A DNA stretch of 57,394 nucleotides, the filler included, from Streblomastix strix (taxonomy: Eukaryota): NCBI GenBank assembly GCA_008636045.1. It is 3 parts of 3 records of this genome, joined end to end, with 100 filler letters (N's around TTAATTAATTAA, not from the genome) between each part and the next. Parts side by side here need not be neighbours in the genome. Positions count along the whole stretch, not along the records: positions 1 to 19,075 come from SNRW01000547.1; 2 more parts are not named here. One strand, written 5' to 3'. Below, in pieces: positions 1 through 52,557 of this stretch. Position 1 is the first letter of the stretch; every line of letters begins with the position of its first letter. A program made the translations under genes and the position numbers. The notes beneath the pieces are model-generated. The model had not been told where the DNA came from and did no database searches. It was given only the letters and a program-made list of their open reading frames with translations.

Positions 1-70
1 GAATGTATTATCTATGAGACATTGATTCGATAAAATGATGCAAATACATTTATTTTTGCGTAATAAAATC

Positions 71-400
71 ATGGCAGCAGGAATAATCAACAAGCTAAAA
101 AAACTAATCTCTGTAGTTGGTAAAGGAGTCAGTTGGATGAATGATAAAGTAGTCAACCCAAAAATGTCTATAACTAACACACTTCTCTAATCTTTGGGAC
201 AAGCAGGAAGTATGGTGGCGAAAGGAATTAGTGCAAGATCATTTGCAGTTGATGCACTATTCGGATCAAATAAATAATAATCAAAATAACAGTTCAGATA
301 AGATTTTTAGACATTCCGGAAGGATGATTACTTAAGGAAAAATGTTCCGATTGATATAATTAGTAAACGTATACAGCTACTTGGAGATGAATTATAGTGA
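71..400 (+). CDS. Small viral protein (109 aa) with N-terminal amphipathic helix
   Basis: Code-6 ORF MAAGIINKLKKLISVVGKGVSWMNDKVVNP...IQLLGDELQ*, preceded by the TATTTTTG..AAA leader and directly upstream of the major capsid gene. Confidence 0.7.
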
Positions 401-453
401 ATCATTATTCGAGTTAACTAACATATAATCAAATTATTTTTGCGCAATTAAAC

Positions 454-2175
454 ATGAATTTCTAGCTTATGAAGACGTTTATTCCAAAATCACAGGAAAA
501 TTTGTAGACTATTGAGAACCTGTTAAAGACCTTCGCAATTCAACCATTTTAGAATGATGGAGAGCACCATTTCTCAATCAAAGAGATCAAGCCAGAATCA
601 TAAATGCCATCATTATTTGATAAGGAAGTTATCATCAGTTTATCCGATTCAGATCATTACGTAACACAAATGTAAAATTCATTCATTACACTTGAGTTTA
701 AAATGAATCTGTTATTCGATAATAAATTTGATAAATTTGATGATGCTTATAAAGAAGGTACTTTCATATTTGTTGGATTGAAGAATTCAGCTTAATTGAT
801 TAAATAATATGTTCTATATCATTGAGGAAAGACCATTGATGGATCCCTCTGGAATGATGCAACAACTGAATCATTTATTTATAATACTATCAAACCAAAA
901 TCAGAGAAGAATAATAATAGATTCGTTCATTCACTCTATGAAAATGTACGTAAATTTGACATATCTTGCTGCGGTAGATTTATTAGCATTAAAGAAATTT
1001 CAGAAGTACTTGCACCATAAACTTCATCTCCATATGCTATGCCAGTTGGCTTCACAGTATCAATCCCTCTAGATGATTTACTCATTTTCTCTGCATTCTC
1101 TGAATATCCTAATAGTCTATTTGGTGATCTCAAAATTAAATTCAAAATTAACCCAAGCGCATTCGTATTCTGCTAAATAGATCCAGTACTTTCAATGGCT
1201 AAATATTATACAATTAATAAAGATGAAATATTTAGCTCATGTTGAGATAAGTTTAAGGATATTGATCTATTCTTCCGCAACTGGAGTCTCACATTCCAAT
1301 ACACTAACATGTACACACAAATTGGATGCACTGCTCATTTGGTTACTGGTATACGAGCAGAAGAGCTAACTCCTTCACGATTAAAGAATCTCGTATGTGC
1401 TATTAAACCAGTTACAGTATCCGTAAGAAGTTATGTTATCGAAGCTATAACAGCAAATATGTGTGGGTATAAAGCGTCAGAAACTTGTCTTAATCGTGTA
1501 CATTAATTTTATTAAAATCACCCATTTGTTGTTCCTGCATAACGTATTGAATCATTGGTATTTCCAAGTGCAGCTTCATCCGCTGGAATAAAAACAACTT
1601 AAAATATACCTCTATCTCATGTAACTGATATGTGCTTATTATTCCCTAAGGATGCTAGACATGTTACTTGTTATGAAAATCCGTGCTATTTTGATATGTA
1701 TATTAATACAATGAATAGAAATTTCCCAAATTTCCCAATGAATACTCTTAATGAATAATTCTTCACAATGCAATTATAAGCTAATAATGACGATAATATA
1801 TTCGAGGAATGTGACGAATATGAAGAATCACTCGCAACTCCAAGGGCTAATAATACACGAAGATACAATTCAGTGAGTGATTATACATCATTCTTCATCA
1901 CAATATAATGTAAACGCAATAGCAATGGTGCATTATCATTTGATGGATTAGATTCTAAGAACTAGAATACTGCAATTGAACTAAAAGGACATCCAATATT
2001 CGCAGGAAAAATAGATACTTATTATAATGTTGATACTAATGGAAAACATCCACCTCCTCCGATTCTGTGCACAGTTCACGATACTTTCTGGCTATTCAGT
2101 CCTAGAGATGGAGGATCTTGCATATATGATATAACTCATTCATTTGATTAGGTTATTAATTAGGTTACTGCTTGA
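454..2175 (+). pseudogene. Putative double jelly-roll major capsid protein (~573 aa), two premature TGA
   Basis: Single frame MNFQLMKTFIP...FDQVINQVTA* with TGA at 823-825 and 1243-1245. Beta-rich, with the segment SIPLDDLLIFSAFSEYPNSLFGDLKIKFKIN resembling the Polinton MCP ipl..l..f...p....l.i.l pattern. Size and context fit; the fold is inferred. Confidence 0.72.
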
Positions 2176-2203
2176 TATTGATGAACATTATTTTTGTTAT
2201 AAA

Positions 2204-2578
2204 ATGCCATTTGATATGACCTCAGCTCCTAATGTAAAACGCTTCGTAATAATATAGGATGATTGTACGTATGTTGATGGAATGTTTAAAGAATAGTTGC
2301 CTTATGATTTTGTTAACTCAAATAATTAGCGAAAAATAGTATTCGTATAATGTAAGATTCTTAATACTTCTGATATTGTCTCTATTTATTCAATACTAGT
2401 ATAAGAAGAATAATATTATGATAATTTTGTAAGTTTTTGTAATGAAACTAGAACAATTACTGAATTTTAATAAATGAATCATTAGCCAAGTATATTGATT
2501 TTGTTCAAAAATAATATGAATTAGAATGTATCATAAACGGATATAAAATTTGTTCTTGTATTGATGCTTCAATATTGA
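2204..2578 (+). CDS. Putative minor capsid/penton-like single jelly-roll protein (124 aa)
   Basis: Intact code-6 ORF MPFDMTSAPNVKRFVII...LPYDFVNSNNQRKIVFVQCKI...DNFVSFCNE...IKFVLVLMLQY*. Alternating beta-strand C-terminus typical of Polinton pentons; adjacent to the MCP. Confidence 0.55.
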
Positions 2579-2765
2579 TTGTGAATTATTTTTAAATAAT
2601 TGAGGGGGAGAATATTCCTCCTCAACTTTTTTGTATATTAGTGTTCGAATTATCGGTTCAATCAGCTGTGCCCATTTAGGTCCAGCCCCCTCATAAATCA
2701 TTTTTCATGCATAAATAAATAATCATTATTTCATTTACTAATCCAACTTTTTTTCTAATCAGAAA

Positions 2766-3612
2766 ATGACATCTAAAACCCCTTCAACCCGTCAAGTAGG
2801 CTCGAACAACGAAAATTTCACAATTGGTTCTTATAATGGTTTCGAAATAATGATACGTGATAGTAATGGCTTCATAAACGCTATTAAATTAGTCTAATAA
2901 ATAAATAAAAGAGAACATACAACTAAGGAATTATGTAATATTACACGTTCACCAGTCTTTGTAGAATATAAGTAATATCTAGAGAAAAGTAGCCCGTTCA
3001 ATTTGAACGGAACATTTGCTACTTTCTTCCGACTGCATTTATGAATGATGTTAGAGGAACATTCATTCATAAGTAATTATTGAATATTATCTGCACAAAA
3101 TCATCAGTTAAATACTTACATCATGCCTCAACTATAATGAACAAAATTAATGAAACAACTATAGCAGAACATGAGGCAAATATAACATAAGCAATATCAT
3201 ATTAATTCCATAGTGTAATGAATACAGTTACCGATACGCTATCTAATCGAATACCAGAATTGAATTCAGATATAAATTCATTAATTCCAAGAGCAGTTCC
3301 CAAAGGTAAATAAAGAAGCTTTTGCTTAATAGTTGAAGAAGTCCATTAATATGATGATTAATTAAAGATATAAATTAGAAGAAATATGAAGAAAAATATT
3401 AGCAAAGGATTAAGGAATACTATAAAAATGATACATTATTGTTTATCGATAATTTGCCAATAGCTACAACAATTAATGAAGTAATTAAAGAGCAGCTATC
3501 AAATAGAGTTGGAATGAAGATAAAAGCAACTAAATACACTTTTCCATATGACCAATTAGATGATATAATCGAACGAATTAAATAGATAATAATTGAAGTT
3601 TAGTATATATGA
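2766..3612 (+). pseudogene. KilA-N domain DNA-binding protein, frameshifted
   Basis: GSYNGFEIMIRDSNGFINAIKL and RGTFIH KilA-N motifs; frame changes near 3020 and 3420. Confidence 0.8.
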
Positions 3613-3695
3613 GCTTAATTTATTTTTGTTTAATTGAAATATCTCGTATACTATTCGATAGTAAGCTAGTTAAAAACAATAAGTCCAAAGATAAA

Positions 3696-4043
3696 ATGTA
3701 ACCATTACCTGAACTATAAATATTCAATAAAACCGATGAACAACCATTAACGTTTGATTCGACTGATGAATTCCATTAATATTATGCAGCTAATAAAGAA
3801 TCTATTGATAAGATGCCAACAGTAAAATTAAATAAATCATATAAAATAGAAGGATATATCTTCACAAGATAGAATGAACAAATAGCATTGAAATAAACGA
3901 AACATAAGTCATCTGAGCAAATTGAACTAGCTAGTCTATAAGAATAAATCAAAGAAATATATGACAAATTAACGTATTTAGTTAGCTTCTTTGAATAAAA
4001 ATAACAATCAATTTCCTATTAAAATGATGGGTACGTTCATTGA
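3696..4043 (+). CDS. Hypothetical viral protein (115 aa)
   Basis: Intact code-6 ORF MQPLPELQIF...FDSTDEFHQYYAANKESIDKMPTVKLNKSYKIEGY...YVH* with a C-terminal coiled coil. Confidence 0.7.
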
Positions 4044-4817
4044 TCAGATAACTCTCACAATTATTCCGTCATTATTATACTGTACCAGTAATGCTTCTCG
4101 TTTGCATAATTGCACATATTCATTCGATAATGTTTCTTTATCTAGCGGATTGCTTGATTAATAGAAGAATAAATTGAATTTTTATCTATTGAATCCATCG
4201 AAAAAGTATATTATATCAACATTAGATTTAATGCTAGCATCTAGACCTATTATATCTTGCAAGCATAGGAAATAAATGATTCTTGGCTATTTATTTTTGA
4301 ATATTTTCTTATATAATGGATTGTTTTTATTCTTGAAGATACTCATTGCATCATCGAACAGCATTATTGTATGTGGAAATTTGATAGAAAAGTCCTTTGC
4401 TCCAATATGAGATAATATATCTTTCTTCGATTCTTCTTTCATTTAGTTCTCTAATTTGTATTCAAATACGTCATCGTATACCTTCTTACGTTCAATCAAT
4501 TCATCTAATGCTTCATTCACTTCTGCATATGGAACTATCTTAGTTGGGATAGTGATTAAGTCTTTCATTTTCTTATAAGTTATATCATTATTGCTATCAG
4601 TAACATATATGAATAGTGTGTAACATTTATTAAGCAATTAGCTCAATTTGATTAGCTCTTTGACTACATTATATGAGATACCGCTTCCACGCTATCCTAT
4701 GAGAAAATTGATAGAATTATACGAGAAATTTAGTTCATTATGAATGAATGATTATACTTCATGTTTATTAGTTTTCTATTTGCTAAGTAATTGGTCTACA
4801 TAAGCTGTCAAGGATAT
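4044..4817 (-). pseudogene. A32/FtsK-HerA family DNA packaging ATPase, Walker A Lys lost, start codon not found
   Basis: NFLIGQRGSGISY (Walker A, K>I), IMLFDD (Walker B), KNKQPRIIYFLCLQ (Arg-finger/Gln region). Open frame to TGA at 4044; the likely start position reads ATA. Confidence 0.85.
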
Positions 4818-4869
4818 TTGTTTGTTATTAATTATTTCATTCACTTATGAACCTTTTCTTGTTACCAAA

Positions 4870-6180
4870 ATGAGTACTGAAGAGTTAAATTCTGAAATTA
4901 CAGAAATTTGAGGAAATGCAACGGGTAACGATGAATTCTTTAATGAATTTGATGATACTGAGTAACATATACAAATTTAACATAGGCACAAAAGTCGTAA
5001 AAGTGCTTAAGAATAATTAGCTATATTGAATGAAATAACTGAAGCATTCCGAAGAGTTTAATAAAAATATTAGACCTCAATATTATAAATGACTACAAAT
5101 CCTTTATAAAGTTATATAGCTAGTTAACCTTAAATAATTACCTAAAATCCGATAATTTAGTAACCAATTTAGTTACCAATTTAATTACAAACATAATCAC
5201 TAAGAGAATAATTGATAGAATAAGAATAATAACCAACTTTTATCTAAGACAAAAACATGGCTTAAGCGTAACAATCAATATTTCAAAGTTGGTAAACAGG
5301 ATAGGGATAATCGTTAACAGCAAAATAATAAGCAACAGTAGATATAATGAATGCTGGTGCGGCAAGAAAACGTATAAATCTGGGGTAAGCATTTAACGAT
5401 ACATAACTTGCTGCATTAACAGAAATATTAGATGTAAAGAAATTTAAACATAGAGATATTAAATACAATAAAGAATTGAGAACATTGCCTTCCGCATAAG
5501 CTTATATCGGTAGTAGGAAAAGTATGGCTGGATAAAGAGTTAGAAATGTTGATCCTGATGGTGAAGGATCACTTCCTAGTTTTGCAACTGTTTATACTGA
5601 TAAAGGAAAGCTATATTCTATGGGTGGATATATTCCAAAACTTGAAAGTAAATACGATAGTTTCCAAGAAGATTATATAGGAAGTGTACCAAAAGTCTAA
5701 CGTAAAACTACGAAATTCTTTGATTTTATGAAAGGAAAATAAGTTCCATATGGAAAGGGTAAGGTTCCGACTAATTATTAAAGATTGAATCCCCATCAAC
5801 ACTATATGTCAGCATACGTTCTAACTATGGCTGAAGAATTTAATCAAGCTAACGGAGGAGATTTATGGAAACTTAAAGGAGCATGCATATATGTTGCAGC
5901 AGCAGCTTGGGATTTGATTGTAAGACATCTATTGAAAATTATTGATACATAAATAAATTCGGATGCAGCATGTAAAGAAACTGTTAAACAAGCTGCAAAA
6001 GTGTATAAGAATGAAATTGCAATTAAATATTTCCAAAAGGTTGATGATGATGAAATAGCATTGGCAACAAATATTGAAAACTTATATAATAATATAGCTC
6101 GAGTAGCATATCAGGAAAAGCAAGGAAAATGACTATAATTAGGATATTAAGCTCAAGCATCGTAAATGGAACAAGATTGA
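4870..6180 (+). CDS. Hypothetical viral protein, Gln-rich N-terminal half (possible core protein)
   Basis: One frame from ATG 4870 with a premature TGA at 4909; open from the in-frame ATG at 5089 (or 5257) to TGA at 6180. Confidence 0.65.
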
Positions 6181-6223
6181 TAATGAATGGATTGATCACA
6201 TAATTTATTTTTGATTTATCAAA

Positions 6224-9200
6224 ATGACTAGAACAAAGAAATCAATTGCAGAAGTAAGCAGACTCCTCTAATTATACGATCCAAACACAAACATGAATGT
6301 GAATGATAAATAAAAGAGATCAAATTTAAGTTCAATACTGTCAAAGATTGGATTCTATGGTTAACGTAATAACGTTATTGCTGTGGAATAAGCGATCAAT
6401 GCAGTAGTTTCACGTAATATATATATGAAACAATCCAAAGTAGCAATTGTTACATAAAATCTTGCACGAAAGTGGTTCAATTAACGAGAACAGTAACGAT
6501 TAACACGAGAAGAATAGATATGAGGAGAATAAGAATACAGTAAAATCCGATTAATTCGCACTACCATCGGCGAAAAAAATGCTAGTGCGAATTAAGTTAA
6601 TTCGCACTTTTATAAGTAAAAAGTCAAAGAATTTTTTTTTAAATTTCAAAAAAATAACTATTTTTTCGATTTTTTTTTAAAACTAGAAAAATCTTTGTAT
6701 TTTTGAAAATTTAATGTATGATATTGTATAAACAGTAATATATAATAATAAAATTTAAATATTTACATTAAATATTAAAATTTTTCATAATTAATTTAAG
6801 AAACAAAAATTATTTTCATAAATTTTTATATTTTAAGTGCGAATTATAAAATTTTTTTGCGAATTATCTATAAGAAATTAATAGAGAAACAGTGACATTT
6901 CCTCAAATAATATAATAGTGCGAATTATACATATGGTGCGAATTAATCGGTGTGCGAATTAACAGGATTATACTGTAATTATAAAAATAACGTGAATTAG
7001 ACATAAAAGAATTAAGAGAAGAGTTCGATCCAGAACTATTAGACGAAGAAGGTATATTCGATCCAGAACGATATAGATAATAGCAGCATTAATTAAGAGC
7101 ATAAGAGATAGAGAAACACAGGAGAAAATAAGATGAAGATAGATAGGCAAGATAAGCGTAGTTGTTAGATGAATTTCATAATGTAGAGGATATGAACATC
7201 GATATACTATTCGAAACAGACTAATAAGAAATTAGCGATTACATTAGAATTCATGAAAAATATGTGTATCATCGCTTAAATACAGATAATGATGTGATTA
7301 TGCTATGTGACATATAGAAAGAAGCGCAATTCAATAGAATTAAGAACATTGCATTAAATAGATACAATAAAGAAACAGGTACTCTTTCTTATAAATCACA
7401 TAATTTATCATCAATTAATTAAATGAAACCAACTAAATAATATTATACTAATATTGCTTCATAAGCTGATTTAGATAAACACTTAGACTCTGTATATGAT
7501 AAAGAAAAAGGGAATGTGTTTAAACTAAATGTTGATTTTGGAGTGCTAATAGAACGTGTTGATGGTAATAATGAAGATTAGACAATATAGTACAAATATG
7601 TACTTCCAGTTAATGTAAACTCCGAACGAAGAGCACCATTAGAGATACGATCTAGAGATAACATTAATATGTACAAGTGGTATCTTCGAACAGTTATAGG
7701 AAGCGTGTAGGAGAGAGTTTATACAGATACTCATGAAAAAATAGTATCAATTTTCTCAATAATGCTTTTTGTTTTTCGATATCCATTAGCAGGTGCAGCT
7801 ATTCCTTCATTAAAGTAGCATATTAAATGAAGAGAGATATATTATATTGATTTTAAAGTGAATCTATGTTTCTGTACAGCATATTCATTCGTCACAATTC
7901 CTAATACTAAGGATAAATATTGGAAAGATTGTTCTAGAATCGCTGAATCTAAGCGTATATTTTCAAGAGTAAATGGAGTAGCGTTTCGAGATAATTATTA
8001 AGGATTCGATTTTGTAAGAGAAATTGATAAATTTATTAATAAAGAATAGGTTAATGTGTACATGTACGCCTATAAAAGTGATCCTCTACACTATGAACTT
8101 ACATAAAATTATCTCGTTAATGGTTCAGACATATAGTTCAATATCCTATTCATTAATGATGAAATTAACGCGCACATTATGTATGTATCTGATGTTGAAG
8201 CACTAACTGGATTTCGTTACTGTAATATATGTCATAAATAAACTTTCCGAATAGGAGATACAATTCTATAATAATTAATGAGAAATCATATGAAAAAATG
8301 TCAAAAGAATGGTGTAAAAATAGTGAAGAAAGTTATCTTAGAAAAATTTGCAAAACCGTTTGTTTCTCATATTTTATCTAATAAGACTTATAAGTATCTA
8401 TAAACGAATAATTTAACTCAATTGTTCAAACCTACAAGAAATTACATATCATATGATATTGAAACATTAGAAAAGAAAATTAATGAAAAATTTGGTGATA
8501 TTTCATAAGTTACTGCAACTCTAATTCCATACGCTATTGCATCAACTGTCAAATTGGCTAGTGGTATCCATTCATTTTATTACGATATTCGAACAGACGA
8601 TTTCTTAGATAAGTGGTTAGAGTAAGTATTTGAAGAAGCGAAATATGTTAAGAAAGATAATAAATATACTGATGAAACAATTCCATAATATTATGAAGTA
8701 CCAGTAATTGGGTTCAATTCTGCTAAATTTGATGCGTCAGAGCTATTTAAGAATTTGAAGTCAAAAGATTGGACTATCTCGAAATATTTGTGCTCAAGTA
8801 CAATCGCAAAATAGATAATTGTCAAGCATTAGTCTTCAAGCATTCAATTGAGATTCGTTGATTTTAAGATCTATATTATGCAACATAAGTTAAAGGATGC
8901 TGTTAGAGATTTTGGGAATGGATTGAATAAGAAAGGTCGTTTTCCTCATGAATTCATAAACACTAATAATTACATGAATGAACTGAATAAAAGTGAACCA
9001 TTTCCGATCGAAGCATTTGATAATAAATTACGAAATAAGAAGCTTAGTGAGGTTAGGTACAAGGAGTATCTGGTCGAAGCAGCTAAACACAAATCACGAT
9101 GGGATTACTTGAAGCATTACAATATATTAGATACTAGAGTTCTCATTGAACCTATAGATTACTTGATTGAGTTAATGTTTAAATATAAAGTGGATATGCT

Positions 9201-11169
9201 AGCTAATATATCTATGTCATAATGCGCTAATTCGATCAAATATTCAATAACATATAATGGTTTTGATATTGATGGAGATTATAATTGTGAAAGCACAGAT
9301 AAATTAATCGAAATCACATAGAATTATTGGAGAGCTAAAGTGGATAGTTATATCGAATAAGGTAATAAAAAAGGTAGAGATTCAAGCAATAAAGTTATGA
9401 TTGATGATTATGATTATTTTAAAGAAATATTCAAGAATTAACGATGTCATATGTGCAATGCACGATTCACATGGAAGAATAAGCCCAAATTAGATAGAAT
9501 TGATGATAACAAAGGTCATTCAAAAGGTAATGTGATTAAATGCTGTTTATATTGCAATGTATGCAAAGCTAATCGAGATGATAAATAAATGAAATTAATG
9601 GTATAGTTAAAGAAATATGCGCTATTAAAACGATTACCTATGGCATTAACGAGTAATGAAGGATATCAATTATTGAGTAAAGGTATTATTGGAAGTATAT
9701 CAAATGTGATGCATCGATACAATATTTCAGGAGAAACGAGAATTAATCATTTCGAATTTGATTAAGAAAATAAGTGTGTGTATTCAATTGATTCAGATTA
9801 TGTGATGACCCATGCAGTTTAGTTAGATTTTCATAGCTAATATCCAAGTGTTATGAGTGGTGAGCCAAATATGTTAAATTCTTATACAAATCACATAATA
9901 TTTATACCAGCATAATTGATTGAAAAGATTACTGATCAAGATCGATGTAAAGCACTAATATATGACACTAGCAGGTTCTCTAATGACCCATTAGTAGTCG
10001 ATAAAATGTTATTATTTGTTGCTGAAGTTAGAGGTCACACTGATGAAAGATATATTAATGAAGTGATTAATTGGGGTCCTATTCTAAGAAATATTGATAT
10101 CACAACAAACAAAGAGACAATTGGTGAATTTATGTATAATCATCTAGTCAATCACTAACTCCTGCATGATAAAACAGAATGAAAATTAACAAATTTAGTA
10201 GATACCAATAATGAAATAATGTCATTCAATAATTACTATTTATGGTTACTAATTGATACATATCATCTTGTAATTGACGAGATAGTTAGTGTTACCACAT
10301 TTACGAAACACACTAATTTCAACTCATTCGTGAAGGAATTTATGAATCTTCGATAGTAAGCGAAAGATGCTAAAAATGAAGGAATAGGATAATTCTGTAA
10401 GTTAATATTGAACTCAGTATTTGGAGGCGATGCACTAAATAGTGAGAAATATTCCAATACAAGATAACTCTCTGCAAATAAGACATTCATATAACATATA
10501 ATGGGTGGATTCATTCATTCGACCGAATTAAATGATGACTTATACGCTGTGTAAGTGGATAGGAAAAACTGTCGTTGCAATACATGTTTATAAGTAGCTT
10601 ACTTCGTACTTGATTCTGCGAAATTTTGGCACGATAATTTCATATATAATTTTATGAATATGGCTTATAATATGAATAGGATGCACTTTATTCAAGGAGA
10701 TGCTGATTCATTAACTTGGGCAATTAGTAGTAATCCAAATAGAGGTCCAGAACAGTTATTTGAAGAAGTCATCAAAGACTAGTGGTTCTTTGACAGATAC
10801 AAAGATTGTGTGTTTTCAGAGAATGGATAGAAATATATACTTCATATTGGTGTGGAAAAATATGGTTAGAACTGTATAGCTCTATTACCTAAAAATTACA
10901 TAATTAATAATGAGATTGTTTTGAAGGGAGTGATTTTGAATCAAAATCCATGGATCAATGGACAATCGTTTGAGGACTGCATTAACAAAGGAACTATTGC
11001 AACAGCTATTAATACTACATTAGTGTAGAAGAAAGGTACTATGAGCAGGTTGAAAATGGAGAAAAATGCAGTCATGGGATCTCATACTAAGATGATAGTA
11101 TTATCGAATCAATCATGTCATCAATTTATCAAAAATATCAAAGCAGACAGATATTTTAATAAATAGTGA
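6224..11169 (+). pseudogene. pPolB: Protein-primed family B DNA polymerase (~1500 aa), interrupted by a MITE and three TGA
   Basis: ExoI YDIET (~8452), ExoII GFNSAKFD (~8710), ExoIII HYNILD (~9115), motif A LDFHSQYPSVM (~9823), motif B KLILNSVFG (~10399), motif C QGDADS (~10693). TGA at 6521, 7828 and 10180. The frame is restored when 6538-6977 is removed. Confidence 0.95.
6538..6975. mobile_element. 438-bp non-autonomous Tc1/mariner-pogo type MITE
   Basis: 24-bp TIRs CAGTAAAATCCGATTAATTCGCAC / CAGTATAATCCTGTTAATTCGCAC (21/24), TA duplication at 6536-6537 and 6976-6977, about eight copies of TAATTCGCA(C) in both orientations; removal restores the PolB frame. Confidence 0.93.
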
Positions 11170-11194
11170 TTATATTATTTTTACTTTATCAAAA

Positions 11195-11830
11195 ATGGAC
11201 AAACAAGAGAAACAAGATGAAGTAGTTAATACATTAAAATAATGAATTTCATAAATGCAACAAACAAAAGCTTTATGTAAGTTATCGATGGATTTATAAA
11301 AAATATGTGATAGTATGGACTGATGCGATTAAAATTAGATGCAAGAATTGCAGGTGGATTACCTTGTAGAACTAATAAAATGAAGACAGAATGTTTCGAT
11401 GATTAAGCATTCTATTTAAGACATGCAGGTGAATTAACGAAAATAAATAATGAAAAAAATCTAGTTTGTTTCGATGAGGCACATAGCGATACTGAGTTTG
11501 AAATGCGAATATCGCTTAAAGATAGAATATCGGATGAGATCCAGTGGATGAACTCTGAATGCAATGTCGAAAATAAGCTTCATAATGCTTGTGATGAATA
11601 TAAAGAAATACAAGATAATTATATAAATTAGTTAGAAGAATTAGTTAAAATATTAGAGAGAATAATCTATTTTTACACTAATCAAAATGCATATCTTTTA
11701 ACCATTATCTGCTAATATTACTATAACCATTGAAGCGCTTGAATAGCTACATATTGATTGGCACGCTATCTTTAAGACTATTTAGGATGCCACTATCAAA
11801 TATGCTTGCGAATCGAAGATCTGCCATTGA
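11195..11830 (+). other. Cluster of two or three short, partly degraded viral ORFs
   Basis: AAAATG starts at 11195, 11380 (MKTECFDDQAFYLRHAGEL...) and ~11687 (MHIFQPLSAN...), two of them with the TATTTTT leader; no recognisable domain. Confidence 0.4.
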
Positions 11831-11856
11831 AGTCTATAATTATTTTTGTATATAAA

Positions 11857-13188
11857 ATGAACAGAGATCAATAAGCTAATTAAGATTAAATTTACTAATT
11901 ATTGTTAGCAAGATTTGCTTAAACAGATGAATAAATTAAATATGAATAATATAATATGTAGCAGTAACTCACACGATCAGCGAATACAAATAATAGAATA
12001 ATGAAGTTTGCACAGTTTATATCAAATATGAGAATTACACCTAGTAAAGAAGAACAAACTGTTTTAATTAATCATGCAGATGAAATATAGATAGGTGGAA
12101 AGACTCTTTTTGAATTGTTCGAAATATATTAAACAGAAGCAGAAAAGTATAATGCAACATTGAAACGAGCTGGATCTATCAGAAGCCAAGACTCCAACAG
12201 ATTATATGTAACAGAATAAATCTAGAGAATCAATTAGCCTCAAAAACCTCTTTCATTATTCCCATTCTAATCAAAGATCAAATATTATGAAAAAATTAAT
12301 AAAGTGAAGATAACATAATAAACATAAATCAAAGACATTAAAGCAAAGCCATTAAACAAACTCTAACACCCATATTTTCCCCCAAAACTTGGATCTTGGG
12401 AGATTGACCTTGGATTTGGTGTGAATTCAGTTACTCGAAGAAGATAGCATTATTTATTTGATATCAACATTAATACAAAATATTTAGTTGTCTTTCCATT
12501 AATTGTAGATGAGAAAAATGCTACATATATATTAGCTGCATTAAAGAAGCTCATTAATTATATAGACGCAAATAATATTAGAGGTGATGGTGAAACTAGA
12601 TTCAAAGCTAATATTATTAGATAATTTTGTGAAGATAATAAGATTTCATTATATTTTATAGGTTCGCCATTTACATAGCAGAACATAGTAGTTGATAGTG
12701 TCATTCATACAATCAGAAACGGGTTTGGATAAGATTTATTTGGTTTTGCAACACCTAGCTAGATGTAATAAATGGTAGAGATTTATAATAAAACTCCACA
12801 TCTTGCATTTATGAACAGATTTACTCCAAAATAAGTGTAGTATAATAAAGAATTAGAATATAAATTCATACGATAAAAAAGAGCATAATTGGAATAGGTA
12901 ATAATAAGTCAATAACAATAGAATTTATTAAATTTCAAGAGTGGAAATATATTAATGATTCACGCTGATTTCTCTAGGTTACCTATTAGATTTTAGAAAT
13001 AGAGGCTTTAATTCAATGAGTTGTCAATATTCATTACTTATAAGAACTGTAATGTTGTGTGTAAATTATTGAATTCATATGATAAAATTAATGTTACTGA
13101 GTTACCTATATATTATTGAAAATTCATTAGTGATGATATCAATTCGTTACCAGCTAATTATAAAAGTTAATTTAATATACGTAATTGA
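11857..13188 (+). pseudogene. Retroviral-like (rve) integrase of Polinton type
   Basis: SWEIDL (D at 12406), YLFDININTKYLVVFPL, IRGDGE (D at 12586), VVDSVIHTIRN (D at 12694), YNKTPH. TGA at 13117 is either premature or the true stop; the frame continues to 13188. Confidence 0.9.
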
Positions 13189-13202
13189 GAATTTTTCTTA
13201 AA

Positions 13203-13616
13203 ATGAAATACAACCAATCGGTGAAACAAAACAAGCCCGTAAAAGATAATCGAAGATATGAGAACCATAATTGATTGAAACATAATCTAGTCCAATTGAT
13301 GAAGTCCTTCATGCTCCGTTAATTGATTAATCACTTAATTCTATTCAATAGACATAATTAAATGAGGAGAAAATAGAATAAAGAGGTAGACCTAAAAAAA
13401 TATAGCTCACAAGAAGAAGCCGAACGCATTGCTGCAGAGTAACGATCCCGTGCCTAATAAAAATATAGAATTCAGCGATAGGAATTCCGTGCATCTGCTA
13501 ACGATTTGTAGCTACTTTTGATACGGCGTCTTCAGAAAACTATCATAACTAAATTATAGGATTTCCTTCAAATTAGCGAGATAATTGATAGATACAACTA
13601 ACCAAATATTCAATGA
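13203..13616 (+). pseudogene. Small AT-hook-like DNA-binding protein, frameshifted
   Basis: RGRPKK followed, after a poly-A frameshift, by YSSQEEAERIAAEQRSRAQQKYR (basic helix). Confidence 0.5.
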
Positions 13617-13659
13617 AAATAATTTATTTTTGCATTAATGAATAACAATAATAATTATA

Positions 13660-14259
13660 AAATTTTATGACAGATTATTCAAAGATTTACTTTTGTATTT
13701 GACCCATTATTTTTGATGAGATATGTTAATGTGCTAGAATCTTATAGAATTATCTTTTATTTTATAAGTAAATTGATTATTTGATTATGTGGAACACTGG
13801 ACTGGGCGGGACGAGACAGATCTCTGAAGGTTGTGCATTTCATCTGCCATAGCGCGATAATGCCATATCATTCATTTTGAATATAATTCTCCATAGCTAT
13901 TGAACATTCTATCTAAATTGCACATCCATACTTTACCATAAAGAGATAATTATTGCAGCCATTTCAAATATTGACTTTTATATTTGTCCAACCTTCATTT
14001 TCGTAAATATTTTGAAGGATTTTCATTAATCATAGAATCGTTCATTTTCAAAAATAATTTCCATCACCAATGCACTTCATTACTGATTTCATTTATGGCA
14101 TAGATGGCATTATGGTAGTATTTTTTCGCAGGAGTCCACGGATTTGTCCCGTTCCAGAAACTGTCCCACATAGATAATTATTCAATTTGCCCGCTTCGCT
14201 AACATGCACATACTAATGAGGATAGATCATTTTGTCCCATTAATCGATAAGCCTGCCAT
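13660..14259 (-). pseudogene. Degenerate hypothetical Trp/Tyr-rich viral protein
   Basis: Frame MGQNDLSSLVCACQRSGQIEQLSMWDSFWNGTNPWTPAKKYYHNAIYAINE... runs >150 codons with three in-frame TGA; TATTTTTG leader on the minus strand at ~14271-14280. Confidence 0.4.
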
Positions 14260-14287
14260 AAATGTTTGAACAAAAATAAATTCATTT

Positions 14288-17081
14288 TCATTCATCTTTT
14301 GTCTCTTATACTACCTATTCAACGAGTCCATTATCTTCAATTGTTTTTTTATATTTCTAATAATTTGCATTAGACGTTTCAGTATCTTCATCATTCATTA
14401 TTTTATCGTAATATGATTATTAATCCTTATTTAACACATATATTCTTGTTCATATTCCATTAATATAAATTCTTTATTCTTCACATTTATGAACCATTGC
14501 ATTTTTATATATCTTTTGTATCCAATTTGAAGGTTTGAATTAATTTACAAGAGCAATTGGAATTCCTTGTTTGAACTGTTCATAATGCTCCATAATTACA
14601 TCGTCTACTGGTGATCGACTAACATTTATCAATTATTTTTTAGATTCAGTCATTGAAACTAATGTTGGATTGAACTATGAAATATCTCTTTCAAGAAAGA
14701 ATGTCATTAAATTTTCATAAAACTCTTATGTGTAACTTTTGCTTAATTCATTAAAATAATCAGACTCTTCCTTATGTTCTTCAGTTACTTAAGGGACAGT
14801 TTTACATGCACATATTAAATGACGTCTATCATCAGTGTCCAATTATACAGGCATATCAGAGTTTGTTACATAGATTATATTCATTACATTCTCAGCAGTT
14901 CTTCTTGGTTAATTCTTTTCATTAATTTTTATAGTTAGATCTGAAATAACTGAATTCATTACTGTTGTAACACCTTTTTTTGAATCATTATAATTCATCA
15001 TTTCATTCAATACTGCAAACATTTTATTTTCGACTACTGAATTGAATCTGCTTGTGAACTAATCTATGTTAGTTATATTTGAACAGCTGTATCGATTTGT
15101 TAGTTCAGCGATTACATCAGTGAATCTATTTTACCTATTCGTTATCTACCTTAAAATACGATTGCAGCTCAAGACTTTTTTCCAGGATTTTATATCATCC
15201 ATGCTATCCAATTAAGAATATATTCATAGACTCTTTCATCTCCTGCAGCAATAGTTTCTTTAATCAAATCAAGGTACATTTAAAAGCATTCATTATCAAT
15301 TCTATCTAATTTCTTATATTTATACCTTTAGAATACTGTGAGAATCTTTGGATCTTCACTAATAAATTTACATCCTTTCTTAGCAAATTTTGAAGCATAT
15401 TTCTTAAAGATATTTTTTGCAGTTAATTGTTTAGAATCCTTTTTATCATCACTCTTTTCATCAGTTTTCTTATTCTTGAAATTTATATTAATTTTCTCTA
15501 ATTATTTATAGACTGTTCCTTCTAACTTGTGAAATAAGACTTGTGTGTCACAGATAGAATCATATCTTTTAATTGCATATATACCTTCAGTTTCACTTTC
15601 ATAATAAACTAATAATCTTGTTAAATCCATAACAATTTATTCTTCATTTTCTTATTCTCCATTAGCTGTTTTCTCTTGCATATCAAATAATATGAATCCA
15701 TCTTATAGATCAATCTTATTATGAATCAATGTCTAGTTAATTATGATTTATTTTTCCTTCCTTTTTGCTTCATAATTCTTTTTCAGTAATGGTCTAATCA
15801 TCTATTAATAGTATTCTTTATTATGGTATCTTAGGATTTTTGAAATGATCCATGGATTTGGTTTGCGTTCACCATTAGATGAAGCTTATCCATGGTTCTT
15901 ATCAGCGTTTGCAGATAGCTTATTGAATTTGCGTATATTTCCTATTCCTTCAGCTCTAATTGATTCATTTCTGAATCCATACAATCCACAGAATATATTT
16001 AGAAGAGATACTTCCATATGGATTGGTTAAGGACAGTTATGTATATCAAGATTCTCCAATCCATCAACACACGCTTATGCAAGTTCATCATTCATTTATT
16101 CAATTGTACCTTCATCATTGATTTATACTCCATAGATTCTATCATGTTACTATTAAGCGTAATCTTTATATGACATCTCAATATTTATATTCCATTAGTC
16201 AAATATCTCCCTCAAGCTCGCTAAATGTGATACATTTTCCCAATCATTAATTGCTTCATATTTGAGTATAACTCGTTAGTTATTTTTAGTTTCTTGAATA
16301 GCTGTGATAGGAGCGACTACACGATTCTATACTATTTGTTTAGTCTCTTTTCCGTTTTCAATTTTATGTTTATTCATTTATGCTAATGCATCAATATCAA
16401 AACTATCTGTCACAGCTACTTTTACATTACGATTGGAAGGTAATAGATAGAAATTTCTATTGCAATAGATATGTAATCCTCCATGGGCAGTCTTAACTAA
16501 ACCTACATTTGGTGGAAGTGTATCAATTAGAATTTATCTTATTTTATCATTCTCTTCTATTGACTTATCCTTATGAATATCTATATCAATTACGCATAGT
16601 TTATCGTCATCCGTTAATAATAAATCAATTAATATATCTGTTATTTATTGTTTTTTATCTTTATATTAACCTAATTTTGTATAGTTTACTGTGTTAATCA
16701 TGGCTTCTTTAACGCGTTCAATTATTGTTTTTGAATCTTATTCTTACATATATAATTCCGCTATCGGTTGAATTATTTCAAGAAATATATTATCATCTCT
16801 TTTTTTTAATCTATACGCTAACTATTAATTTGCAAGTCTTGTTTAAGATCACCTTCAGAATTTATTATATCATGAATGCGTTCGTCATATTTCTCTTCAA
16901 TAATTTGTTAATTACTCGGTTCAACAGTCTGTTCATTAATCATTTGATCAATCATAGCTTTTGCTTTCTCATCTGTTTTCGATTGGCGGGTATATTTACG
17001 TTTTGGTCCTTTCTCAAGTGTCTCACATTTCACGTTTGTTTGTTGGTTTGATTTGTCTTTTGAAAATTCTTCTGTTGCCAT
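14288..17081 (-). pseudogene. Primase-polymerase (AEP/primpol) fused to D5-like SF3 helicase
   Basis: LCVIDIDIHK and GLVKTAHGGLHIYCN (primpol motifs I and II); YEYILNWIAW, FQGRQRIGK (Walker A, 1-bp deletion ~15130), FAVLNE (Walker B), IYVTN, DDRR. TGA at 15169 and 14450; poly-A frameshift ~16800. Confidence 0.9.
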
Positions 17082-17309
17082 TTTGCTTTCGGATAAAATA
17101 TTGAAATAGTTTGAGAAAAATAATTTTATTTTAATTTATTGCATAAATGCCTTATGACAGATCTCAAAATAGATTATCAACTTACCCCGTGCAGGCGTGC
17201 ACCGCGTGCAGATGGACAAATTAATGTATATTTCCATGTCAGGACACTAAATCAAGAATTATCTTAAAAAAGTCCTCGTGCAGGTAGACATTTCATCTTA
17301 TTTATCCAC

Positions 17310-19075
17310 AGTAGTTATGAGAATATGGAGAGTGCCCCACATAGAAAAATAAAATAAATAATGTTAAATAAAATAATGATTATAAAATAATGAAAATAAA
17401 TAATAATAAATAAATTGCATTAAAATAATGTATAATAAAAATATTCACTTGATTAAAATTATTGTTTGAAAATATTGAATTTAATTAATGAATTGATTAA
17501 TGAAGTTGATTAATGAATTGATTAATGATGTTGATTTTTGAACGTATGGCACTCTCCATATTCTCATAACTACATGGTGAAGTTGATGAAGTTGGTTGAT
17601 GGATTTGGTTGATGGTTTTGAACAAATGAAATTTTATTGAATTTTATTATATTCGGAAACCTAAAATTATTAGTGAATTCGTTAGTGAAAACCATTATAA
17701 ATTGAACATAAAATATATTTGTATGTGGATATATAAATGAAATCGTTGATGAATCTATTAATATTCTTCTTAATTGAAACGAATAAATGGAATAGGTAAT
17801 GAATGACTTAAAAGTGGTCAAGGTGCCCATACCCTGAGTGAATTTTTAACTCATTTAAGAAATTAGCTGCCAATATGCCAAAATGCCATTAAATATATGT
17901 TATTGACACGAATAAATGGAATAGGTTATGAATGACTTTTAGGTGTTCCGAGCCGCAGGCGGAGGTTTAACGACATGTTCCGAGTGTTCCGAGTCAAATG
18001 GGTTCTATAAAAAATGCCAGTCGATCCGCCAAATAGTCGAAACATGAAAAAATAAATAAACGAATTATTCAAATGCTAGCGTCTTCATTGATGTCTTCAT
18101 TAACATCTAATGGTTATGGCTCTTCATCCATTAAATATTCGATATCGTCATCTTAATCCATTTCATCCTTTAACAAATCGAACTAAGCATAATATTCTTG
18201 TATTAATTCATAGCACTATTTACGAATTGATTATTTTTATATTTTTTTATGGTCGCAATATGTCTTTATTCCAATCTCAAAGAATTATTGTTTTATATTT
18301 TCTGGCTTAAATTATAATGCACTTATACATGGAACACCTTATTTAAATTCGTCGATATGTTTTAATATTATATCTTCTATCTATGATTTACTGGCCTTAA
18401 TTATATCACGCTTTGCCTCTGTCATAGGTAGTTGTCGCATATCAAAATCTTTCAAATCTTATTACATAAAGAAAGTAAATAAATTATTGTAAAAATTAAC
18501 ATCTTAACTATTGCATAATTCTTTAAAATATTAATTATCTCCTTTATGAATTGAACTACATTTTAATACAACATAACGCCTATCACTCGCTTCGATTTTT
18601 ACTGGATATGGATTGTTTGAAACGAATATAAAATTTGCAACGTTCTCAGCATCACGACGAGGTTAATTTTTTTCATTTATTCTTATCGTATAATCAGTTT
18701 CAATTGATTTTAACCCCTCATTATTTGCCCGTTTATCCTCTCCAAAATTTGTCATCTCATTGGCTATAATTAAGACCTTTCCTTCGACGATTGAATTGAA
18801 GTTTCCAGTCAATTCTTTTATATTTGTGCAATTTTTACAACTATAGCCCGCCATGAGCTCACATAAAACATCTGTAAATATGTTCTTACCAATACCTTAA
18901 ATACCTTTTAAAACAAGTGATGATTCGGTCTTCTTTCCCGCATTTTGAAGTATATAAGCTATCCAATTAATTACGTAATTATATAATTTTTCATCACCTG
19001 AACAAATAACATTCAATATTAAATCTAAATATTATTTTATTATATTTTTATCATATTTTTCAAGTAGCTCATATT
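17310..19075. mobile_element. End of a second element family (D5-helicase element), truncated by contig end
   Basis: Begins AGTAGTTATG; perfect 26-bp inverted repeat 17311-17336 / 17548-17573; two direct boxes (~17779-17890, ~17905-18035); same layout as 49266 onwards. Confidence 0.75.
18069..19075 (-). pseudogene. D5-like SF3 helicase, C-terminal part (5' truncated), late frameshifts
   Basis: YNYVINWIAYILQNAGKKTESSLVLKGIQGIGKN (Walker A), LIIANE, IRINEK, FIFVSN, ASDRRY. Confidence 0.9.
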
Positions 19076-19175
19076 NNNNNNNNNNNNNNNNNNNNNNNNN
19101 NNNNNNNNNNNNNNNNNNNTTAATTAATTAANNNNNNNNNNNNNNNNNNNNNNNNNNNNNNNNNNNNNNNNNNNN
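19076..19175. other. Artificial contig spacer
   Basis: 44 N + TTAATTAATTAA + 44 N. Confidence 0.99.
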
Positions 19176-31716: not shown

Positions 31717-33374
<1,658 letters not shown>

Positions 33375-38235: not shown

Positions 38236-38335
38236 NNNNNNNNNNNNNNNNNNNNNNNNNNNNNNNNNNNNNNNNNNNNTTAATTAATTAANNNNNNNNN
38301 NNNNNNNNNNNNNNNNNNNNNNNNNNNNNNNNNNN
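38236..38335. other. Artificial contig spacer
   Basis: 44 N + TTAATTAATTAA + 44 N. Confidence 0.99.
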
Positions 38336-48390: not shown

Positions 48391-49685
48391 AGATTATTTT
48401 TATTCTTCTAATTATAATGTTTAAGCGATGAATTTTTATTGATTGAAAGAAGACTGATAAAATATGTTCGACAAAATGATTGAAGAAGAGTAAGAAATAT
48501 TGGAAGAATACAAAAAATAGCAAGTTGGAAATTGATAAAGGATAATGATCTGAGCCAGTTGTGTAGAAAACTTTGGTAGATACGAAACCTGGTATAAAGT
48601 TGAATTAAATATTAGAGTTTAAATGAGTCTACGCATGTTTTACCAAAATTAATTCCATTCTCAAATGTTGAGTTTCCTTTAATTGTATTTTCAGTCATTC
48701 TTCTAGGGATAGCTTGAATAACAAAACAGGCAAGCAAAATTAGAACCTATGTGATGATGTTTATAGCACATGCCGAGATACACTGTTTTTAGTTTCGAGA
48801 ACGCTAATTAGCTGTATAATTGAAATAAATGAGTGATATATAAGGAATTCAAATAATATAAAAAATATTATTAAACCTATTGAATGATGCATTATCATAA
48901 TTTTGAAAAGTTCGATAAGGAAAACAAATCGCAAATTTTATTAAAAGAAAAATAATTAGCTATACTTTAAATTAGTTTATTTGAATTTTCAAATTTAACA
49001 TTTTTTAAAAAAAGAATTAGTTTAATAATAAATTATTTGCTCTTTCTAAGTCAATCAATTTTGAAATTGAATTTTTCATTGTTATTTCTATCATCTTCTT
49101 TTAATCTCATCCATAGTATTTGAAGTTTTTTTATCAGATATCTAATACTTAATTACAACTTACTTATCCAATTCGGTTTCATCTTTAAAATTATTTCTCT
49201 TCCTTTTCTGTTGTCAGCTATTAACTTACAAGAAGATTATTGATTTGAAGAGTATTTACCTCCAGAGTAGTTATGTGAAAAAGGAGAGTGCCCCACATTG
49301 AAATATAAAATAAAATAATAATAATATAATAATAAATAATAATAATAAATAATGTAAAATAAATAATAATAATAAATAATGTAAAAGAAAATAAACACTT
49401 TGAACGAGATTATTGAAAGAACAAGATTGATAATGATTAATGAATATGGATGTTGAAGAAGATTAATGATATACGTTATTGATTGATATTCTTGAAATGT
49501 ATGACACTCTCCTTTTTCACATAACAACTTACTCCATTAATTAGGTACGTTAATGGATTTGGTTAATCGAAACCTAAAATATGTTACTGAAAACGTTGAT
49601 GAAAAGCGTTTAATGTTTTAACATAATATATTGAATGATTGATGCGGATTGGGAGTATTGAGTCCTAAAACATCGATGACATCTG

Positions 49686-49806
49686 TGAAATTGGCACGAG
49701 AAAATGGAATCGTTAATGATTGACTTTTGACTGCACCGAGTGCATCGAGTGCATCGAGTCAAAAAACTTTCATCAAAAACTGCTGCCAGCCTGCCATTCT
49801 GCCAGA
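49686..49806 (+). repeat. Left arm of ~120-bp inverted repeat (partner 52438-52557)
   Basis: AAATGGAAT.GTTAATGA.TGACTTTTGACTGCACCGAGTG...CGAGTCAAAAACTTTCATCAAAAAC.GCTGCCAGCCTGCCATTCTGCCAGA matches the reverse complement of 52438-52557 with few mismatches. Confidence 0.95.
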
Positions 49807-49837
49807 TTTGAGACAAATAAATAAAAATAAATAATGT

Positions 49838-52317
49838 TCAAAAGTTGATTTGTTCGCTGATGGCTTCATTAACATCTTCATTAATGTCTTGATCTTCTTC
49901 TTTTTGTCTATCATATAATTTTATTAAATCTTCATTCAATATATGTCCATGTTCGTTTTCCTAATATTGATTTTTATATTTTTTGACATTTATTTTTTAA
50001 AAAAATAGCTGGAATGAATTCTCTTTAACATCATATGGTTTGAATTATAATGCAATAGTGCAAGGCTCCCCTTCTTTAAACGTTTGATAATTTTATAGGA
50101 TTACATCATCAAGTTATGAACATGATGCTCTAAATTTGTCCTTTTTCGCTTCTATGAATGGAACGATTCTTTATTTCCAGCCTTCAAAATTTCTGATCAT
50201 ATAATAAGTAAATAAATTATTGTAAAATTCAATCGTGAAACCGTTAGATAAAGATGTGAAATATTCAACGTCGTCTCTATGAACTGCTTTACATCTACAT
50301 ACAACATAACGCCTATCATTAGTTTCAATCTTTTCAGAGAAATCGTTGATGGTTACCATTATAAAATTCATTACATTTTCAGCTGTTCTACGAGTTTGAT
50401 TTTTTTCATTTATTCTTATTGAGTCATCAGTTATAATCGACTTCAATGCATCCATGTTCGAATATCTCGATTATCTAAAATTTTTAAGTTTATTAGCTAT
50501 TCCAAGGATAATATTTTCGACGACAGAATTAATCTTACCCGTAAATTCATCAATATCTTAAATATTTTTATTTGAATAACCAGCCAATAATTCACATAAA
50601 ACATCCGTGAATATGTTCTTGCCTATATCTTGACTGCCTTACAATATCAGTGCCACCTCTGATTTTACATCTATATTTTATATTACAAATGAAACCCAAT
50701 AAAGTTTATAATTGTATAAATTTTCATCCTCTGCTGCTATTGTTTCATATATTAAAATTAATTAATCATTGTGGAGGTCTTCATCAATAGTAGGCAATTA
50801 TTAATATTTATAACCTTAAAATATATTGAATATTTCAAGGTCTTTTTTAATAAATCTAATTCCTTTCATCATATATAAAGAATTAAATTAATCGCAAACT
50901 TTTTTCAATTATATATTTTTTTTAATTTTCTTTCCTTAGGATAATCTTCTATAATTGTTCATATATTGCAGTTTTATTCATGTAATAAATTTTATATTTT
51001 TCATTGATTGTATCATATTATTTAACTATAAATACTAAGCCATCATCACATGGAGCACATCGTAATATTCTTGCGAAATCTTGAACTATTTATTCAATCT
51101 TTTTATGTACTTTATTTGTTATGTTTTTCTAAATATCTAATAATGAAAAATTATCTTTTAATTCAATTAATTACTAATTTATTTTTATTTACTCATCTTA
51201 TAGTTATTTTGCAAGATAAGGCTTTATAACATCGTTGTAATACTATGGATTATGATATTTAACAATCTTTTATAGAACCCATGGATTAGCTTTCGAATAG
51301 AATCTAGACTTTTTGAGCTCCCAATTTTGAATCTCATTTTCGGTTAAATTATTTTATGTTTAAACTTTATTATAAAAATCATCAACGTATTATTTAATTT
51401 CCTCCTCTTGCAATCCTTCAACAAATACAAGTCCATTTAATCCAGTAAATAAACATAATAACGTTATTTCTCGTTCGACTTTCTAATCATCATTATGTAT
51501 ATATAAATGTTAGATTCCATCAACTAATAAATCAACTAATTCCTTATATATTTTTCTTAATTTTCCGTCATTATTTATAATCGATTTCTCTTCTTCAAAT
51601 TATGCTCTTAAATCTATGCCGTAAATAACTAAGACATCATTTAATGCCGCTTGGTTCTTCTTTTCAAACGTATTATTTAAGTCCTCATATTTTAAAGTTT
51701 TCCTGTAATTATTTTCTTTATTTCTATATGTTGATTTCGGAAGAGCAACAAGTCTTTAATTTTCATCGATTCGTGCAAATATATCAACATCAAAGTTTTC
51801 AGTTTTAATGATTTTTGATTTATGAATTATTTTTTAATGAATATCCATCTCTATCGGAATATATATAATCCTCCATGAGCTATCTTAACGAGTCCAACAT
51901 TAAAAGATAAATTTTCAATAATTTTATTTCTAATTTCTGTTATTTTTTCATCTGATAAATCTTTTTTGATATCAAAATCCATTACGCATAATTAATCATC
52001 ACATTTGTCTAAATCAACTGCTGAACCTGTTTTTGAACTTTTTTTCAATATGTATGTTTCTTTTAATTATATAATGGAGTGATTCTGTCTTTGATATTTT
52101 GGCAAATAGTTAAATTATTATATTTCGAATTATTTTCTGACATATTTATTTGAAGAGCTAAAAATATTCCATTAATTTATCTCTTTTTCTTTTGTTCATC
52201 AGTCATATTACCTGTTATTTCTGTTGGATATAATTCATTGATTATTTAGCTGGTTTGACTGATTGATGGATTCTAATTGCCGACACATCCGACAGATTCA
52301 AATTCTTTTCTTGCCAT
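49838..52317 (-). pseudogene. Primpol (AEP) fused to D5-like SF3 helicase, frameshifted
   Basis: LCVMDFDIKK, NVGLVKIAHGGL, LILQGSQDIGKN (Walker A), IRINEKNQTRRTAENVMNFIMVT, NDRRY; frameshifts near 51860 and 50000. Confidence 0.9.
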
Positions 52318-52437
52318 TTATTTCCTGTTAAAAAAGTTGAATTTAAAAAAAACTCATTTATTTTTAAATATTATTAAATTTTTATTTATTATTTTTTTTA
52401 TTTGGAATAAATTTATTTTTATTAATGTTTTTTCACT

Positions 52438-52557
52438 TCTGGCAGAATGGCAGGCTGGCAGCTGTTTTTGATGAAAGTTTTTGACTCGATGCCCTCGGTA
52501 CACTCGGTGCAGTCAAAAGTCATTCATTAACTATTCCATTTATGCGTGCCAAAATCA
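52438..52557 (-). repeat. Right arm of ~120-bp inverted repeat
   Basis: Reverse complement of 49686-49806. Confidence 0.95.

Follow-up and report, generated by a model that had tools for sequence, protein, structure and literature searches.

Streblomastix strix, an oxymonad metamonad and termite-gut protist, is already known to carry many virus-like elements. In the passages of Bellas et al. 2023 (PMC10120064) that deal with this host, 820 capsid matches were obtained from S. strix under translation table 6 and all fell into one cluster, and one of these major capsid proteins (MCPs) was modelled on Sputnik 3j26. The same passages describe a Metamonada group shared with parabasalid and Trichomonas MCPs, state a long-term host association, and report that Evosea MCPs cluster within it, which indicates horizontal transfer in its history. 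A virus family of S. strix that writes glutamine as TAA or TAG (TAR) is already published (PMC10120064). Parts of other sources (among PMC11161782, PMC12289875, PMC3671162, and PMC13524828) describe the Trichomonas vaginalis Mavericks (TvMavs, Polinton-1_TV) as elements of 10-28 kb that may lack terminal inverted repeats and may be nested or concatenated, and record endonuclease inserts in the polymerases (pPolBs) of polintons, while the Metamonada elements were left ungrouped in the portion of bioRxiv 10.64898/2026.06.19.733378 that treats them.

Here we analysed a window (the whole stretch of DNA, 57,394 nucleotides including filler) of the S. strix assembly GCA_008636045.1, in which three contigs are joined by spacer runs at 19076-19175 and 38236-38335 and the viral element lies in 1-19075 (SNRW01000547.1). 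With a probability of roughly 80%, we read positions 1-17309 as most of one copy, likely integrated and likely dead, of a Metamonada-group Maverick/Polinton-like virus that occurs in hundreds of copies in S. strix and uses TAA, and likely TAG, as glutamine codons.

Capsid protein, polymerase, and viral lineage

By structural modelling, the product of the gene at 454-2175 is a double jelly-roll capsid protein. The original prediction, made from the sequence of this stretch, had set this fold beforehand as a point on which it could fail, and the fold was recovered. AlphaFold gave a predicted local confidence (pLDDT) of 93 and a predicted template-modelling score (pTM) of 0.92 with an alignment of 86 rows, and a pLDDT of 37 only with an alignment of 40 close copies. 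In a Foldseek search against the PDB, all listed matches were MCPs of iridovirus, PBCV-1, Sputnik, mavirus, faustovirus, and their kin (best E value 1.6e-13 for the iridovirus MCP; TM scores 0.39-0.49 by query length), and a structure search of BFVD had the same outcome. Alignment to a PBCV-1 capsid chain using VIA-align covered 348 residues with a Z score of 20.2 and a root-mean-square deviation of 4.0, and a search of the PDB by sequence with the MCP profile returned no match. The polymerase gene, PolB, matches Pfam DNA_pol_B_2 with an E value of 1.7e-6, which passes the cut-off, and together with the capsid fold it bears out the assignment to a Polinton-type virus. PolB also contains an insert matching the endonuclease VII family PHROG 1035 (E 3.9e-10), and comparison with phage records gave no match. 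In its N-terminal part (7831-8200), Cys and His motifs seen by eye fit the vOTU protease domain of polinton pPolBs.

All 120 listed homologs of the MCP belong to S. strix and are 49-92% identical to it. A quick tree, with a midpoint root and no bootstrap, combined 44 remote capsids with 22 S. strix capsids drawn from the 120 listed (66 in all). Every S. strix sequence in it falls on one branch with an SH-aLRT support of 100, and these sequences split into four star-like subfamilies, in agreement with diversification inside the host. In the Atlas, a copy with 88% identity lies next to clusters of Preaxostyla, Parabasalia, and Preplasmiviricota (0.97-0.98) and next to capsid families (0.96), which, with the published cluster in the passages of PMC10120064, sustains the proposed metamonad lineage related to Trichomonas Mavericks. 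One full-length homolog of the window capsid, P0190, is deposited under an 'Alphaproteobacteria bacterium' assembly and is probably viral DNA that was binned into a bacterial genome. Protein-based locus searches of viral, metagenome, and genome contigs returned nothing (the metagenome patterns, which spelled Gln as CAA/CAG (CAR) only, make for a weak search), and DNA motif scans gave 0 matches.

TAA, and probably TAG, as glutamine codons

Under the standard code, a single stop-free frame of at least 120 amino acids (aa) exists in 1-19075 (129 aa), in line with the anticipated near-total failure of standard-code annotation to pick up the element. The longest stretch across 12 viral open reading frames (ORFs) is 18-129 aa under the standard code vs 105-783 aa under table 6. 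The expectation that every viral ORF would be open if TAR encodes Gln does not hold for this copy, since the MCP and PolB genes hold two TGA each and the KilA-N and primase-helicase genes are frameshifted. The 12 ORFs (4,352 codons) contain 165 TAA, 65 TAG, 56 CAA, 14 CAG, and 4 in-frame TGA codons, and the PolB frame has 2 TGA vs 27-75 in its five other frames. TAR accounts for 230 of 300 viral Gln codons (77%); for host genes the figure is 135 of 197 (69%; p 0.049), counted over three of four ORF cores, the fourth, with 11 TGA, being dropped. The long host-like ORFs on contigs 2 and 3 are likewise open only under table 6, in keeping with a code shared by virus and host.

The assignment was then compared with remote homologs of the capsid at 20-40% identity, 69 in number, drawn from 150 listed of 547 matches; the 20 that were looked up have gene calls from ENA, JGI, Logan, and NCBI, and no examined member was named S. 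strix. Of the 19 TAR columns, 18 held enough residues; over these, Gln has a mean share of 0.21 vs a background of 0.048, and 0 of 100,000 random column sets came this high. At capsid codon 363 (TAA) Gln is present in 61 of the 69 homologs. The log-likelihood for TAA is 16.4 for Gln vs 4.4 for Glu (12 columns), and control codons in the same test recovered their own residues. It is clear that the viral genes read TAA as Gln, and they likely read TAG in the same way; the anticipated alignment of TAR positions to Gln in homologs thus stands for TAA, with a weaker result for TAG alone.

Two further lines were rejected as evidence for the code: the agreement of S. strix copies on Gln, which stands at 62% in TAR columns and at 2.4% in the others, is circular, as these proteins were translated with table 6, and the observation that the ORFs end in TGA is true by construction. 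The original prediction had also pointed to conserved motifs, and the codons are indeed TAA in LDFHSQYPS of PolB and TAG in the Walker A-like GQRGSG. These motifs are no proof of Gln, because neither Walker A nor motif A of PolB is known to have an invariant Gln at the quoted position; the lysine position of the Walker A-like motif reads ATC (Ile).

If the virus had used the standard code, its TAA and TAG codons might have arisen by neutral C-to-T decay of CAA and CAG after insertion. The copy is AT-rich (GC 25-33%) and decayed and its TAR share is slightly above that of the host, as such decay would have it, yet we regard this origin as very improbable. About 77% of CAR codons would have had to change, while TGA makes up at most 4 of 34 CGA/TGA codons and private amino-acid changes amount to 7% (among 446 capsid columns on which the four closest copies are unanimous, the window capsid departs from them at 32). 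In three helicase copies with about 60% identical DNA, moreover, TAA stands opposite TAA or CAA in 10 codon pairs. Because there are 4 TGA vs 30 CGA in nine viral ORFs and few private differences, post-insertion C-to-T drift is disfavoured as the source of TAR. As judged from these sequences, TAR use would be older than the decay of the copy, and the active ancestor would have used TAR for most Gln. This quantitative argument that recoding predates decay is what the present copy adds.

Probable decay and ends of the viral copy

Four in-frame TGA codons are present, two in the MCP gene (823-825 and 1243-1245) and two in PolB (7828-7830 and 10180-10182), and the reading frames of KilA-N and the primase-helicase are broken over two and three frames, respectively. 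At both capsid stop positions, a residue is present in 38 of 39 other copies. The database protein P0005 (S. strix EZS28_003945) is identical to the window MCP at 521 of 521 aligned residues, and 47 residues are missing from its gene model. They fall in two gaps placed exactly over the two in-frame TGA stops; these gaps are probably false introns, through which a pseudogene would pass for a protein.

The contig starts inside the element, and its edge forms the left side. At 17310 a different repeat begins, where contig depth in run X1, near 3,700 before this point, rises to 259,000; X2, X3, and X4 show lesser steps (depth figures are not a measure of copy number). These are four public runs that cover all 30 bins of the viral contig; three are recorded as termite gut metagenome, and X1 and X4 are a single sample, whose independence from the assembly is doubtful. 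Flanks before 17310 varied in two of the four runs, with mutually unlike sequences in the contigs that diverge from the reference there (n=3 in X3, n=4 in X4). Neither a terminal inverted repeat nor a target-site duplication was found in the contig, whose edge and second repeat hide both ends, and no inverted repeat was found linking the contig start with the right side. Because of the cut left edge and the other repeat at 17310, and without terminal repeats, the label 'near-complete' holds for gene content only.

An alternative is that the element is undamaged and might still be active, its stops and frameshifts having arisen as artefacts when many near-identical copies were assembled from amplified short reads. 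Polishing removed such stops in another protist, according to the relevant passage of Bellas et al. (PMC10120064), and 18,102 X1 contigs with a wide spread of identity lie on the stretch; P0003 and P0004 are full length, and P0014 sits on a very short branch (0.0034). On the other hand, a small X1 contig depth keeps the window's letter at the majority of the 40 sites listed (e.g., 1228), a 226-nt X1 contig equals 17110-17335 with 0 differences, the differences are evenly spread over the capsid columns, and the subfamilies are star-like, although the independence of X1 from the assembly is not assured. We therefore consider an intact element unlikely. Even less credible is that the contig represents a free, non-integrated virus amplified with the cell: there is no host gene on the contig, as would be expected of such a virus, but capsid and polymerase genes are broken, MCP homologs occur on contigs of up to 57 kb, and the adjoining repeat unit is also found beside host genes. 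The copy is likely integrated and likely decayed.

Other genes and points against the reading

The features of the viral copy and of the repeat units are listed in Table 1.

Table 1. Features of the viral copy and of the primase-helicase repeat units (positions along the window)
Feature	Position	Strand	Remarks
Small ORF, 121 aa	35..400	+	Table 6 ORF upstream of capsid gene; no Pfam family
Major capsid protein (MCP)	454..2175	+	Predicted double jelly-roll fold, capsid homologs; two in-frame TGA
Candidate minor capsid protein (penton), 124 aa	2204..2578	+	Position and beta-rich pattern only
KilA-N-like gene	2766..3517	+	Frameshifted near 3000; Pfam KilA-N matches
Small ORF, 115 aa	3696..4043	+	Weak matches to families of unknown function only
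Putative A32/FtsK-type packaging ATPase	4044..4850	-	Walker A/B-like motifs by eye; Ile at Walker A lysine position; start not defined
Gln-rich ORF, 347 aa	5089..6132	+	TAR in 29/39 Gln codons
PolB	~6976..11169	+	Pfam DNA_pol_B_2; ~1,400 codons long with two stops read through
Small ORF, 117 aa	11380..11733	+	Table 6 ORF
Putative retroviral-type (rve) integrase	11857..13119	+	Pfam rve on core; D,D motif by eye
Small basic ORF	13299..13616	+	Likely frameshifted; contigs of all four runs show a one-base indel at 13394
AEP (Prim-Pol-like) primase + SF3 helicase gene ('D5')	14291..17081	-	Broken near 16850 and 15130
265-bp unit, ~27-bp terminal inverted arms starting AGTAGT	17310..17574	.	Left boundary of very abundant second repeat; copy 49266-49529
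Inner inverted-repeat arm (partly duplicated) + C-terminal part of second AEP-SF3 gene (18069-19075)	17773..19075	-	Contig end cuts gene
Hairpin, then decayed AEP-SF3 gene alone	49266..52557	-	~158-bp inverted repeats 49686-49843 / 52401-52557, 86% identical

The N-terminus of the first small ORF is basic and amphipathic-looking, and its place ahead of the capsid gene presumably recalls that of adenovirus protein VI before hexon, which we take as a lead only. For KilA-N, adjacent frames match the profile at 2-53 (E 0.00095) and then at 36-106 (E 0.086), both below the curated cut-off. The stretch 2586-2989, which includes the first half of this gene, is skipped by contigs in three of the four runs, and KilA therefore seems to be a variable accessory gene. 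From its motifs, 4044-4850 is a putative packaging ATPase. No Ulp1-family cysteine protease was found among the 23 ORFs scanned, the left end of the element being absent from the contig.

Several points weigh against our reading or parts of it. The candidate penton has no homologs at E<=0.001 among proteins of 68-217 aa, and its Pfam and PHROG matches are weak and unrelated; the ATPase candidate has no supporting profile match in Pfam, PHROG, or PDB-type searches; and the integrase candidate matches Pfam rve at an E value of 0.036, below the cut-off, with no relevant PDB match. For the code, the remote homologs are assigned the standard code from their full-length gene calls, and the log-likelihood for TAG alone is weak (Gln 0.2 vs Ala -0.06 in 6 columns). 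Distant S. strix families could have been missed in the tree because its rows were picked by similarity to the window copy. Integration is deduced indirectly, because the copy is seen without host flank, terminal repeat, or target duplication. Finally, Bellas et al. 2023 caution in one passage that assembly artefacts often account for stops in copies known from short reads (PMC10120064), and the four TGA sites are absent from the 40 difference rows listed; for the latter reason, decay is likely rather than proven.

Primase-helicase genes and an abundant repeat unit

The gene at 14291-17081, whose breaks were located by tblastn, matches Pfam DUF5906 (E 2.9e-12) and the profile of the NrS-1-type primase 6k9c (E 3.8e-21), with a Prim-Pol match at an E value of 0.27 only. 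The predicted 'D5 helicase' is present insofar as this is a primase-helicase, but members of the AEP-SF3 family also lie away from capsid genes, and the gene may be a passenger. The family has 131 matches, and all 120 listed are from S. strix. Two further members in the window belong to the second repeat, which shows the same order in contigs 1 and 3: hairpin unit, spacer, inverted-repeat arm, and 3' end of the AEP-SF3 gene. The hairpin of 17310-17574 has a DNA fold z of -8.8 and is collinear with 49266-49529, and its arms vary between copies yet pair within each; ends of the AGT type are a Polinton trait. Likewise, 17773-19075 is collinear with 49569-50808 at 62-67% identity. On contig 3, the AEP-SF3 gene stands alone between its repeats (49686-52557), its AEP domain being read from motifs and a weak Prim-Pol match. 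No clear target duplication was seen at any boundary of the repeat units.

Possibly the gene at 14291-17081 lies outside the viral core set and is instead a separately mobile AEP-SF3 member that landed in or beside the virus, which would be compatible with our reading of 1-17309. Mobile AEP-SF3 replicase genes have been proposed, as set out in parts of bioRxiv 10.64898/2026.10.13.758929. One of the two repeat-bracketed members has no capsid gene on its 19-kb contig, and just 3 of the 37 other listed AEP-SF3 contigs of at least 10 kb pair with a listed MCP contig, as judged by size and neighbouring locus tags. Against such mobility, no inverted repeat was found around 14291-17081 (the best scores were equalled by 1-18 of 100 shuffles), and three other contigs do carry both AEP-SF3 and capsid genes, a linkage that is under-counted because it was assessed among the 120 matches listed for each, from gene models of certain lengths.

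The unit at 17310 and 49266 could be a mobile primase-helicase element or a remnant end of another Maverick type. Tentatively, S. strix may hold an abundant family of elements of about 3.3 kb that consist only of a primase-helicase gene flanked by inverted repeats and of a hairpin ending in AGTAGT; they would copy themselves, borrow the Maverick integrase, and be the source of 'D5' in some viral copies. Judged by title, none of the papers listed on Streblomastix transposable elements deals with AEP-SF3. Near this unit, the ORF at 54294-55100 resembles a tyrosine recombinase (Pfam Phage_integrase E 0.007, below the cut-off) and is possibly a decayed DIRS-type retroelement. Elsewhere on the host contigs, ORFs contain a 30-nt tandem repeat at 22242-22481 (Gln-rich) and an 18-nt repeat at 28425-28532 (His/Ala/Pro-rich, after a C2-like domain), and a long AT dinucleotide run lies near 31860-31975.

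Proposed history of the copy

The capsid fold, PolB, the code, the breaks, and the many divergent copies come directly from the present data, and the Polinton model may supply the remaining steps. A protein-primed polymerase would copy the linear genome, the rve integrase would insert it, and the A32-type ATPase would pack it into the jelly-roll capsid, with all viral proteins made on host ribosomes that use TAR-reading Gln tRNAs and presumably TGA as the sole stop. One viral lineage may have entered the host line, where several subfamilies would have diverged from it and multiplied in bursts; the present copy would then have gathered nonsense, frameshift, and missense changes, and the second repeat would afterwards have been placed at 17310.

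Comparison with known systems

The Mavericks of T. vaginalis use the standard code, unlike the S. strix virus, and may carry a D5-type helicase. It follows logically that TAR-rich genes would be cut short in standard-code hosts, so that, with TAR making up 77% of its Gln codons, the virus could not be translated in neighbours that use the standard code, among them termite-gut parabasalids, while the reverse move would not be blocked; this one-way asymmetry is testable by phylogeny. In the passages of PMC10120064, TvMav MCPs are about 32% identical to those of S. strix and fall into the same cluster. TvMavs also have a KilA gene (bioRxiv 10.1101/2024.03.23.586382, in part), to which the KilA-N-like gene of the S. 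strix copy would correspond. KilA appears restricted to parabasalid polintons in the main text of that preprint, where oxymonads are unmentioned and whose supplements may list them; possibly, then, an oxymonad virus carries KilA as well, beyond the parabasalid polintons.

Compared with the S. strix endogenous viral elements as presented in PMC10120064, the copy comes from the same host assembly, belongs to the same capsid family, and is read with the same table 6, and nothing differs in kind. The gene map of an S. strix copy is what the present analysis adds, as none appears in the passages and supplement rows of that paper, and it concerns a group that was still ungrouped in 2026. With Polintoviricetes, as described in parts of the sources named above, the copy has in common a pPolB with a homing-endonuclease insert and a double jelly-roll MCP, the rve integrase and ATPase being putative here, and it differs in that no Ulp1-type protease was found in the part present. 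The mobile AEP-SF3 genes described in parts of bioRxiv 10.64898/2026.10.13.758929 stand alone without an integrase, and repeats bracket the replicases in polisuviruses, as in the S. strix unit. Bodo saltans virus has 11 AEP-SF3 copies without flanking repeats (same source), unlike the S. strix unit, which is bracketed by 158-bp inverted repeats, has a hairpin ending in AGTAGT, and counts at least 120 listed relatives, all in the genome of a cellular organism. If mobile, this repeat-bracketed unit would be a clear example, in a cellular genome, of the proposed mobile AEP-SF3 elements.

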